From Escherichia coli (GTDB taxonomy: Bacteria; Pseudomonadota; Gammaproteobacteria; Enterobacterales; Enterobacteriaceae): a stretch of 64,000 nucleotides of DNA. This document shows positions 1 through 21,776 of this stretch, piece after piece. The DNA is taken from the NCBI RefSeq assembly GCF_002854065.1, contig NZ_CP024147.1. One strand, 5' to 3'. The notes below the pieces were generated by a model that was not told the origin of the DNA, ran no database searches, and was given only the letters and a program-made list of their open reading frames with translations. How positions within the stretch are numbered: the stretch's first letter is position 1; every line of letters starts with the position of its first letter. The translations under genes and the position numbers were made by a program.

Positions 1-163
1 AACCAGACCGGGAGGAATGTTAGCCCCGCGCCGTCGTTAACCAAATCCCACGCCAGGGGAACAGACTGGCGGACCTTCAAAGACGGTCGCACACCGTGTT
101 TGACATAATTTATTGTTTTTTGCTTGCTCTTATTATTGCAGCCGTTAGGGTAATGACTCCAAC

Positions 164-667
164 TTATTGATAGTGTTTTATGTTCAGATAATGCCCGATG
201 ACTTTGTCATGCAGCTCCACCGATTTTGAGAACGACAGCGACTTCCGTCCCAGCCGTGCCAGGTGCTGCCTCAGATTCAGGTTATGCCGCTCAATTCGCT
301 GCGTATATCGCTTGCTGATTACGTGCAGCTTTCCCTTCAGGCGGGATTCATACAGCGGCCAGCCATCCGTCATCCATATCACCACGTCAAAGGGTGACAG
401 CAGGCTCATAAGACGCCCCAGCGTCGCCATAGTGCGTTCACCGAATACGTGCGCAACAACCGTCTTCCGGAGACTGTCATACGCGTAAAACAGCCAGCGC
501 TGGCGCGATTTAGCCCCGACGTATCCCCACTGTTCGTCCATTTCCGCGCAGACGATGACGTCACTGCCCGGCTGTATGCGCGAGGTTACCGACTGCGGCC
601 TGAGTTTTTTAAATGGCGGAAAATCGTGTTGAGGCCAACGCCCATAATGCGGGCGGTTGCCCGGCAT
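164..667 (-). CDS. insB: IS1 InsB (C-terminal part of InsAB' transposase, made by -1 frameshift)
   Basis: 167-aa ORF overlapping insA 3' end in the -1 frame; A6C slippery motif present. Confidence 0.9.
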
Positions 668-861
668 CCAACGCCATTCATGGCCATATCAATGATTTTC
701 TGGTGCGTACCGGGTTGAGAAGCGGTGTAAGTGAACTGCAGTTGCCATGTTTTACGGCAGTGAGAGCAGAGATAGCGCTGATGTCCGGCAGTGCTTTTGC
801 CGTTACGCACCACCCCGTCAGTAGCTGAACAGGAGGGACAGCTGATAGAAACAGAAGCCAC
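586..861 (-). CDS. insA: IS1 InsA (transposition repressor / N-terminal part of InsAB' transposase)
   Basis: 91-aa [25 protein letters not shown]... recognised as IS1 InsA. Confidence 0.93.
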
Positions 862-988
862 TGGAGCACCTCAAAAACACCATCATACACTAAATCAGTA
901 AGTTGGCAGCATCACCAGCTTTACTAATATATTGCAGCTGGACCGCTTACCCTGAATATTCAGGGTAAGCGTGAGAGTTAAAAAAGAA

Positions 989-3268
989 TTACAGCGGTTG
1001 GGTTTGCGCTTCAACCACGGCCAGCGCCACCATGTTGACGATACGACGTACCGATGCGATCGGCGTTAACACGTGAACCGGTTTCGCCACGCCCATCAGC
1101 ACCGGACCGACAGTCACACCTTCCGAGCTGGAAACGCGCAGTAAGTTGTAACTAATGCGGGCAGCTTCCATGTTTGGCATTACCAGAATATTGGCAGAAC
1201 CTTTCAAAGGGCTGTCCGGCATACGGTCGTTGCGAATCGCTTCCACCAGCGCTGCATCGCCGTGCATTTCACCATCAATCATCAGTTCTGGCGCACGTTC
1301 CCTGACCAGTTCCAGCGCCTGACGCATTTTGCTCGACGACGGACAGTCAGAAGAACCAAAGTTGGAGTGCGACAACAGAGCAACGCGCGGCTCAATACCA
1401 AAACGACGGACAGTTTCTGCCGCCATCAAGGTGATCTCCGCCAGCTCTTCTGCGTCTGGTTCGTCATTGACGTAGGTATCGGCAATAAAGGTGTTACCAC
1501 TCGGCAGCAGCAGCGCGTTCATTGCACCTGCGGTGTGAACGCCATCGCGATAACCAAAGACATTTTTCACCACGCTAAAATGTTCATGATAATCACCCAC
1601 CGTACCGCAAATCATTGCATCGGCTTCGCCACGCTGAACCATGATCGCGCCGATCACTGTCGGGTTACTGATCAACGCCCGCTGCGCCTGTTCCTGAGTG
1701 ACGCCGCGACGCTTCATGATCTGGAAGTATTCGGTCCAGTACTCTTTAAAGCGCGGATCGGATTCGTTATTGACGATCTCAAAATCAACGCCCGCTTTGA
1801 TCTGCAAGCCCAGTTTCTGAATGCGCATTTCGATCACGTTCGGACGACCGATAAGGATCGGTTTCGCCAGTCCCAGCGTTACCAGTTCCTGAGTGGCATG
1901 TAGAACGCGCGCCTCTTCCCCTTCCGGCAGAACTACGCGCTTCGGCGCTTTGCGAGCCTGGGAGAAAATCGGCTTCATAAACAGGTTGGTTTTGTAAACG
2001 AACTCAGTCAGCTTGTCGATGTAGACGTCGAAATCAGCAATCGGACGCGTCGCCACGCCCGACTCCATCGCCGCTTTCGCGACCGCAGGAGCGATCTTAA
2101 CGATCAAGCGCGGATCAAACGGTTTTGGAATGATGTATTCCGGACCAAAGCTCAGATCCTGATCGCCATACGCTGAAGCCACCACTTCGCTCTGTTCCGC
2201 ATGGGCCAGTTCTGCAATCGCGCGTACCGCCGCCAGTTTCATCTCTTCGTTGATGGCGGTTGCGCCAACGTCCAGCGCGCCACGGAAGATGAACGGGAAG
2301 CAAAGGACGTTGTTGACCTGGTTTGGATAGTCAGAACGACCGGTGCAGATGATGGCATCCGGACGCACTTCTTTCGCCAGCGGCGGCAGAATTTCCGGTT
2401 CCGGGTTCGCCAGCGCCAGGATCATTGGCGCTCGAGCCATTTTCTTCACCATTTCCTGGGTCAGCACTTTCGGGCCGGAACAGCCGAGGAAAATATCCGC
2501 GCCTTCAATCACATCATCGAGGGTACGTTTGCCGTCATCCACTACCGCATATGCGGCTTTGGTTTCCGCCATGTTTGGCTCACGGCCCTGATAGATAACG
2601 CCTTTTGAATCGCAAACCACGATGTTATGTTTTTGCAGACCCAGCGCGACCAGCAGGTTCATACAGGCGATTGCTGCAGCACCCGCGCCGGAAACCACCA
2701 TACGCACGTCAGAGATGTTTTTCTCCACCACGCGCAAGCCGTTGAGGATGGCGGCAGTGCTGATGATTGCCGTGCCGTGCTGATCGTCGTGGAATACCGG
2801 AATATTCATCCGCTCGCGCAGTTTCTGTTCAATATAGAAACATTCTGGCGCTTTAATGTCTTCGAGGTTGATTCCGCCGAAGGTCGGTTCGAGCGCAGCG
2901 ACGACTTCAATAAATTTGTCCGGGTCGAGTTCATCAACTTCAATGTCAAATACATCAATCCCGGCGAATTTCTTAAACAGAACGCCCTTGCCTTCCATCA
3001 CCGGTTTGCCTGCCAGCGCGCCAATGTTGCCTAACCCCAGCACCGCCGTACCGTTAGAGATCACCGCCACCAGGTTACCGCGCGCGGTATATTTGTAGGC
3101 TTTTAACGGGTCTTTTTCGATTTCAAGACAAGGTGCGGCAACGCCTGGTGAGTAGGCCAGCGCCAGATCGCGCTGCGTTGCCAGAGGCTTGGTTGGAGAA
3201 ACCTGGATTTTCCCTGGAACTGGAAATTCATGGAAATCAAGTGCACTTTGTTTTAACTGGTCATCCAT
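989..3268 (-). CDS. maeB: NADP-dependent malic enzyme (with phosphotransacetylase-like C-terminal domain)
   Basis: 759-aa [26 protein letters not shown]... recognised as MaeB; length matches. Confidence 0.95.
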
Positions 3269-3556: not shown

Positions 3557-4507
3557 ATGAACGAGTTAGACGGCATCAAACAGTTCACCACTGTCGTGGC
3601 AGACAGCGGCGATATTGAGTCCATTCGCCATTATCATCCTCAGGATGCCACCACCAATCCTTCGCTGTTGCTCAAGGCTGCCGGATTATCACAATATGAG
3701 CATTTAATAGACGATGCTATCGCCTGGGGTAAAAAAAATGGCAAGACCCAGGAACAACAGGTGGTCGCAGCGTGTGACAAACTGGCGGTCAATTTCGGTG
3801 CTGAAATCCTCAAAATCGTACCCGGTCGCGTGTCAACAGAAGTTGATGCACGCCTCTCTTTTGATAAAGAAAAGAGTATTGAGAAGGCGCGCCATCTGGT
3901 GGACTTGTATCAGCAACAAGGCGTTGAGAAATCACGCATTCTGATCAAGCTGGCTTCGACCTGGGAAGGAATTCGCGCGGCAGAAGAGTTGGAAAAAGAA
4001 GGTATTAACTGCAACCTGACGCTGCTGTTTTCTTTTGCACAGGCCCGGGCCTGTGCGGAAGCAGGCGTTTTTCTGATTTCGCCGTTTGTCGGGCGTATTT
4101 ATGACTGGTATCAGGCACGCAAGCCGATGGACCCGTATGTGGTGGAAGAAGATCCAGGCGTTAAATCGGTGCGCAATATCTACGACTACTATAAGCAACA
4201 CCACTATGAAACCATTGTGATGGGCGCGAGCTTCCGTCGCACCGAACAAATCCTCGCCTTAACCGGCTGCGATCGACTAACTATCGCACCGAATTTGCTG
4301 AAGGAGCTGCAGGAAAAAGTTTCGCCAGTGGTACGTAAATTAATCCCACCTTCTCAGACGTTCCCACGCCCAGCTCCCATGAGCGAAGCGGAGTTCCGTT
4401 GGGAGCACAATCAGGATGCGATGGCGGTAGAAAAACTGTCTGAAGGCATTCGTCTGTTCGCCGTTGATCAACGCAAACTGGAAGATCTTCTTGCCGCCAA
4501 ACTATAA
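3557..4507 (+). CDS. talA: Transaldolase A
   Basis: 316-aa [26 protein letters not shown]...; transaldolase family; followed by tktB as in K-12. Confidence 0.95.
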
Positions 4508-21609: not shown

Positions 21610-21776
21610 AGATACCTCAACAATATATTCATTATAGAAATGATCGTAGGTGGTTCAGAGGAAGATTACCACAGGAAAACGGGATGAAATGGCGGAGGAA
21701 TGAGCGTTCAATGCACATCTTACGAGAATGGTTGTCTTGCCGTGCTAGCAGCACGGCAAGATGATGAACAGAAAAA

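Follow-up and report, generated by a model that had tools for sequence, protein, structure and literature searches.

A Perfect 28-bp Palindrome Downstream of Escherichia coli maeB Is Probably a Degenerate maeB Terminator or 3'-End-Forming Hairpin

RESULTS AND DISCUSSION

The palindrome lying between maeB and a neighboring IS1 copy is probably the terminator of maeB, or a hairpin that forms the 3' end of its transcripts, and in either case it would act on the sense RNA. It was studied in a 64,000-nucleotide stretch of E. coli DNA, referred to here as the window, together with the corresponding loci of other genomes. The reading draws on the position of the element, its conservation, its strand asymmetry and the 3' end mapped at the same place in K-12, all of which are documented below. 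With this, the palindrome receives a function and corrected coordinates, and it is assigned to maeB rather than to IS1. Beyond annotation the significance is small, and nothing here should surprise a specialist. The features of the locus are as follows.

1 to 148, no strand assigned: fragment of a CPZ-55-like island, normally between eutB and eutA, apparently joined to IS1 by an IS1 adjacent deletion
149 to 916, minus strand: IS1, 768 bp, with insA/insB co-directional with maeB (open reading frames; IS1B-family transposase annotated in identical DNA)
917 to 943, no strand assigned: remaining 27 bp of the native 292-bp maeB-eutS spacer (alignment to K-12)
936 to 943, minus strand: 3' tail of the hairpin, sense GTCCAGCT, a decayed U-tract (comparison with other alleles)
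944 to 971, minus strand: perfect 28-bp inverted repeat with 14-bp arms, the probable maeB terminator or 3'-end hairpin (fold, conservation and simulation)
972 to 988, minus strand: the 17 nt that separate the hairpin from the maeB stop codon, sense TTCTTTTTTAACTCTCA (related genera have a similar offset of 17 to 20 nt)
989 to 3268, minus strand: maeB, NADP-dependent malic enzyme, 759 amino acids, stop codon at 989 to 991 (open reading frame; RefSeq annotation of identical DNA)

A long inverted repeat just past the maeB stop codon

The first-pass annotation of this DNA had described a 24-bp palindrome, cttaccctgaat/attcagggtaag, at positions 943 to 966. The 24-mer exists and its 12-bp arms pair perfectly, but it occupies positions 946 to 969 and forms the inner part of a longer inverted repeat, CGCTTACCCTGAAT/ATTCAGGGTAAGCG, at 944 to 971. 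The longer repeat has 14-nt arms with 100% complementarity and a spacer of 0, so that the dyad is perfect through its center, AATATT. The distance to the maeB stop codon, given earlier as 23 bp, was measured as 17 nt from the 28-mer and 19 nt from the 24-mer. The distance of 27 bp to the end of IS1 holds when it is counted from the 28-mer; from the 24-mer it is 29 nt.

Among the perfect short-spaced inverted repeats of the window, the 28-mer is the longest. In 200 simulated 64-kb windows (first-order Markov), the longest arm averaged 9.4 and never exceeded 13. Arms of at least 14 were found in 0 of the 200, and the repeat is thus not a product of chance. Two other short-spaced inverted repeats of the window were recorded, one at 21735 to 21761 whose 12-nt arms pair perfectly around a 3-nt loop (TCTTGCCGTGCT/AGCACGGCAAGA) and one at 4032 to 4061 with 15-nt arms of 87% complementarity.

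In the maeB-sense RNA, the repeat is predicted to fold into a 12-bp stem with an AUAU loop (-20.4 kcal/mol) that begins 17 nt past the stop codon. The centroid structure of the region has an energy of -22 kcal/mol, with a z score of -4.7 against shuffled sequences. A stable sense stem-loop shortly past the stop codon, as intrinsic terminators have, is therefore present in the window, where the hairpin is equally stable on either strand.

The palindrome in E. coli genomes

Comparison with a reference free of the insertion, which had been proposed as a check, located the hairpin in K-12 (DH1 and MG1655) within a 292-bp maeB-eutS spacer. A count over 5426 complete E. coli genomes gave 4049 with the perfect 28-mer and a further 1195 with the 13-bp-arm form of K-12, which has lost the outermost C-G pair, in each case at one locus per genome. 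Present in IS-free K-12 and in nearly all E. coli genomes, the palindrome is native to the maeB-eutS spacer and older than the neighboring IS1. Across the diverse strains sampled (O157, B2 UM146 and divergent isolates), the stem is invariant.

A search of the window with up to 3 mismatches gave no second copy of the palindrome. An Rfam search of positions 1 to 1300 at permissive E-values gave no family above threshold; the best match on the palindrome was a miRNA at chance level (21.5 bits, where the gathering score is 86). A REP/BIME or other mobile repeat was rejected on these grounds: a single copy in the window, one locus per E. coli genome and no Rfam family.

In K-12, maeB is followed on its own strand by eutS, so the two units are in tandem, without convergence, and about 250 bp separate the hairpin from the start codon of eutS. 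Given this arrangement, an element between the genes has to stop maeB transcripts ahead of the eut promoter, which is inducible by ethanolamine. Separate maeB and eut transcription units are also consistent with proteomic data in which MaeB was not coinduced with the Eut proteins (PMC11334477).

Mapped maeB 3' ends in K-12

Full-length maeB (b2463) transcripts of MG1655 have been mapped by SMRT-Cappable-seq, from transcription start sites at 2578443, 2578498 and 2578531 to termination sites at 2576049/2576050 (Yan et al. 2018, Supplementary Data 1, PMC6131387). In the same coordinates (NC_000913.3), maeB ends at 2576098 and the hairpin spans 2576055 to 2576080. The mapped ends thus fall in GC-AGUUUA, 5 to 6 nt past the stem. 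In M9, 52 reads were counted at the start sites, of which 11 ended at the maeB termination site, 0 read through and 12 ended up to 50 bp downstream (PMC6131387). In a later sheet, the counts in the same order are 62/37/3/2 and 62/21/4/7; the other condition of that paper is Rich medium (PMC6131387).

The first-pass annotation had suggested mapping of maeB 3' ends as a test. In these published data, which concern the K-12 allele, the MG1655 ends lie at the hairpin with few read-through reads, although they may be processed ends. We infer that the maeB 3' end is made by termination and not by processing. A maeB-eutS-eutP read-through variant is also listed in the operon table (PMC6131387), and the K-12 site is accordingly somewhat leaky.

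The maeB termination site at 2576049/50 was typed as "novelTTS," that is, as matching no earlier known termination site (PMC6131387). It is the same element as the window palindrome, with 13-bp arms followed by GUUUAG in K-12 and 14-bp arms followed by GUCCAG in the window. The hairpin was therefore already known from the 2018 catalogue, in which the site is listed without discussion (PMC6131387). In the accessible parts of the Term-seq supplements of Adams 2021, there was no entry for maeB, b2463 or its coordinates, and the accessible parts of the TERMITe supplements likewise contained no entry for the maeB site.

Terminators at the same position in related species

Eighty orthologous maeB loci from other species were retrieved, and 21 of these carried the eut promoter motif downstream of maeB. 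In 20 of these 21 related loci, a hairpin was present with 5 or more T among the next 8. In 19 of the 20, the hairpin started 17 to 20 nt past the stop codon; at the remaining locus (L006), the script selected a second one, 51 nt away. Citrobacter, Klebsiella, Yokenella and Pseudocitrobacter have a short GC stem of unrelated sequence with a T-run, for example, GGCGCGGGTTTCTCCCGCGCC followed by TTTTTATTT. Two Salmonella loci, outside the 21-locus count, have a similar GC hairpin and T-run by eye. The eut promoter block farther downstream remains conserved across genera, and the stem beginning with CGCTTACCC was found in Escherichia only.

One locus (L060, CACSKA010000009.1) is labeled Chryseobacterium sp. 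18061, but the C terminus of its MaeB is 88% identical to that of E. coli, and repeat elements of the Enterobacter type come next. Mislabeling or contamination of this assembly is probable.

Within the genus, Escherichia sp. MOD1-EC7003 has the hairpin CGCTTACTCTGGATTATTCGGGGTAAGCG with the tail GTTTTATT (also given as GUUUUAUU), and Escherichia whittamii has the hairpin CGCTTACCCTGAGTAATTCGGGGTAAGCG with the tail ATTTTTAT. The terminator scan accepts both hairpins, but only on the strand of maeB. Neither site is a DNA palindrome, since both are of odd length and have 7 and 5 self-complement mismatches, respectively. At the substituted positions (5 of 5), the sense RNA retains a G-U pair and the antisense RNA has an A-C mismatch. 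The fold energies of the two sites were -16.3 kcal/mol (sense) versus -7.5 kcal/mol (antisense) and -19.6 kcal/mol versus -15.6 kcal/mol. No double compensatory changes were seen among the 5 distinct sequences. The 80-locus set is without E. albertii and E. fergusonii, and the within-genus covariation covers three non-E. coli lineages. In this small sample, the changes point in a consistent direction, suggesting that the structure is kept as RNA of the maeB strand and not as a DNA dyad.

Because the sister species and the other genera have full T-runs at this place, the ancestral state at the hairpin position would be a classical terminator. The earlier proposal of a maeB terminator is supported by three results: the positional match with canonical terminators in related genera, the sense hairpin with T-run in the sister species and the MG1655 3' ends 5 to 6 nt past the stem.

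We propose that RNA polymerase moving past the maeB stop codon would produce a moderately G+C-rich hairpin of 12 to 13 bp, 17 nt downstream. In most Escherichia, a short U-stretch follows, at which transcripts would end. Such an ending would separate the constitutive transcription of maeB from the inducible eut promoter that originally lay downstream on the same strand.

The element resembles the intrinsic terminators of maeB in Citrobacter, Klebsiella and Salmonella in having a sense stem-loop 17 to 20 nt past the stop codon. The K-12 transcripts also end a few nucleotides past the stem, and the sister Escherichia have a full T-run. However, the E. coli stem has 12 to 13 pairs, 7 of them G-C, whereas the stems in the related genera have 7 to 11 pairs, nearly all of which are G-C. 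Moreover, the U-tract of E. coli has 3 to 4 U, and that of the window allele has 1 to 2 U.

Apparent decay of the U-tract in E. coli

The tail that follows the stem varies within E. coli. GTTTAG is the allele of most sampled strains, GTTTGG, GTTTTC and GTTAAG also occur, and the window has GTCCAG. The common E. coli tail is GTTTAGCT, compared with GTTTTATT or ATTTTTAT in the sister species. T accounts for 3 to 4 of 8 tail positions in K-12 and for 2 of 8 in the window, whose tail, GTCCAGCT, is essentially without a U-tract. The terminator scan, for which a T-run is at least 5 T in 8, flagged neither the window site nor the K-12 site, the tails of which are short of T, and no E. coli tail allele among those sampled reached this threshold. 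The GTCCAG tail was found without IS1 at the junction in about 200 E. coli genomes and is therefore a natural polymorphism.

From these comparisons, we infer that the U-tract is being lost in E. coli from an ancestral canonical terminator while the stem is still constrained. Within one species, a canonical terminator can thus apparently be seen losing its U-tract while its stem stays fixed. Since the window allele fails the U-tract threshold, we class it not as a textbook intrinsic terminator but as a degenerate one or as a 3' hairpin. As its U-stretch has decayed to GUCCAG, termination there would probably be weak, leaky and inefficient. RNA that read through in the window would enter IS1 in the sense direction, and 3' exonucleases would then shorten it as far as the hairpin.

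The window hairpin may therefore act mainly as a stop for 3' exonucleases that stabilizes maeB mRNA. For a fixed stem with a variable tail, protection of the 3' end of the RNA is no worse an explanation than a classical terminator. The element shares with the protective 3' stem-loops of Rho-dependent or leaky terminators, such as REP elements, a hairpin in the 3' untranslated region that lacks a good U-tract, with a conserved stem and drifting flanks. Unlike REP/BIME elements, the window hairpin is single copy and descends from a canonical terminator.

A stronger form of this idea holds that the hairpin only blocks 3' exonucleases. Transcription would then stop downstream, through Rho or, in this strain, inside IS1, and PNPase or RNase II would trim the RNA to the stem, setting its 3' end and stabilizing the message. 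A stem-trimmed pattern of 3' ends was reportedly described for Rho-dependent transcripts by Dar and Sorek in 2018. The invariant E. coli stem beside a U-tract that drifts through GUUUAG, GUUUGG, GUUUUC and GUCCAG agrees with such a barrier, as does the failure of the E. coli alleles to reach the T-run threshold. The M9 reads also suggest diffuse ends, with 12 up to 50 bp downstream versus 11 at the mapped end (PMC6131387). Against this stand the full T-runs at the hairpin position in the sister species and other genera, and the K-12 ends that fall exactly within UUU. Rho loading sites are C-rich, and the spacer downstream of the hairpin, with 66% A+T, is not obviously so. On balance, a hairpin that serves purely as a barrier is the main rival but is unlikely, and a maeB terminator or 3'-end-forming hairpin is preferred.

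Roles at the DNA level and on the opposite strand

The dyad of E. coli is perfect through the loop center in more than 4000 genomes, and the adjoining U-tract drifts and is gone entirely in about 200 genomes, the window included. A fixed dyad with a drifting U-tract could mean that the hairpin ends transcripts without a U-tract, or that it has gained a second role at the DNA level (for example, as a protein or cruciform site between maeB and the eut promoter). We regard this as very improbable.

Still less credence is given to the palindrome as a DNA operator for a dimeric regulator, for example, of the eut promoter or of maeB. Such a protein-binding site would explain why the dyad continues through the center AATATT, although an RNA loop has no need of this, and why the palindrome is fixed in E. 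coli. In addition, genomic SELEX with the RpoS holoenzyme gave a peak in the eutS-maeB spacer at 2574144 in older coordinates, at a resolution too low to connect it with the hairpin (PMC5493296). However, the dyad symmetry that an operator would need is lost in the sister species, with their odd-length sites and 7 and 5 self-complement mismatches. The other genera have a GC hairpin of unrelated sequence in its place, and yet they conserve the eut promoter block farther downstream. The element is also downstream of maeB and about 250 bp ahead of the eutS start, and a full-text search of the accessible papers with the palindrome core returned none containing the sequence. The operator, which the first-pass annotation had offered as a second option, was rejected because its symmetry is not conserved outside E. 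coli.

That the hairpin is a bidirectional terminator, which would also stop plus-strand transcripts arriving from the eut/IS1 side, had likewise been suggested and has next to no probability in our judgment. The equal stability of the hairpin on both strands in the window speaks for it, but eutS is co-directional with maeB, and therefore no convergent unit ends at the hairpin. The plus-strand tail, TGAGAGTTAAAAAAG, has no T-run; the sense strand upstream of the hairpin carries a T-run and not an A-run. In the sister species, the antisense hairpin is weakened by its A-C mismatches and folds much worse. The palindrome is thus best read as a maeB terminator or 3'-end hairpin that acts on one strand.

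IS1 insertion and deletion of eut genes

The proximity of IS1 had raised the question of whether hairpin or cruciform DNA attracted the element, and the answer appears to be negative. IS1 is 27 bp from the palindrome in the window, and in another genome (L092) the 9-bp duplication CAAACCGCT of an IS1 copy overlaps the outer 4 bp of the palindrome. Nevertheless, other strains carry independent insertions, each with its own duplication, at distances of 7, 59 and 213 nt from the 24-mer, additional genomes have IS1 elsewhere within the spacer or past it, and the window junction occurs in only 2 of 5426 genomes. IS1 prefers A+T-rich targets, and the spacer is 66% A+T, which accounts for recurrent insertion without any need for the hairpin. 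Hairpin-targeted insertion, for which we see almost no likelihood, was rejected since the insertion sites are scattered over the spacer.

IS1 has entered the 292-bp maeB-eutS spacer repeatedly, as four E. coli loci (L091 to L094) illustrate. The IS1 duplications of 8 to 9 bp in this set, CAAACCGCT, CTTTTTTTA and CAATTTTT, belong to the insertions at 7, 59 and 213 nt, respectively. Another deletion junction in these loci lies 14 nt from the 24-mer, with eutE-like DNA on its far side.

The window IS1 has no target-site duplication; its left flank is AGCCGTTAG and its right flank is AGCTTTACT. The right junction corresponds to K-12 ...CAGTAATA/AGCTTTACT..., with the slash marking the point of insertion. 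When window positions 1 to 916 were compared with L002, L096 and L098, the right junction was common to the window and the E. coli genomes L002 and L096, and the left flank differed in each. The three left flanks are in the same orientation and map to different points of the CPZ-55-like island between eutB and eutA, namely 9148 (window), 8951 (L096) and 5446 (L002) in the coordinates of the MB52 locus. When one end of an insertion sequence stays fixed and the other side varies, the pattern is classically that of nested adjacent deletions promoted by IS1.

The locus therefore looks like the outcome of recurrent IS1 insertion in the spacer followed by nested adjacent deletion of eut genes. In the window, the deletion would have taken out the remainder of the island together with eutA through eutS and the eut promoter, ending 27 bp short of the hairpin; its size is about 13 kb as estimated from gene sizes. 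With eutA to eutS and the eut promoter gone, the window strain should have lost the ability to use ethanolamine. For this genome, the IS1-mediated eut deletion is a more consequential event than the hairpin, and any maeB read-through would now enter IS1.

Minor features of the junction

Two minor features were noted at the junction. A promoter-like site on the plus strand at 903 to 930 (TTGGCA, 16 nt, TAATAT; 9 of 12 matches) has its -35 element within the IS1 end and its -10 element in the flank, and it aims into the palindrome, antisense to maeB. Across the scanned region, 4 promoter-like hits were found versus 3.3 expected, which is no excess over chance. In IS-free strains, a weak, A+T-rich second hairpin, GCAAUAUAUUAGUAAAGCUUAUUACUGAGUUUGC, is predicted just past the terminator (L001, 1484 to 1520). 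The window IS1 junction (region 917 to 935 of the window) coincides with the loop of this second hairpin, AGCT/TA with the slash at the junction, probably by coincidence.
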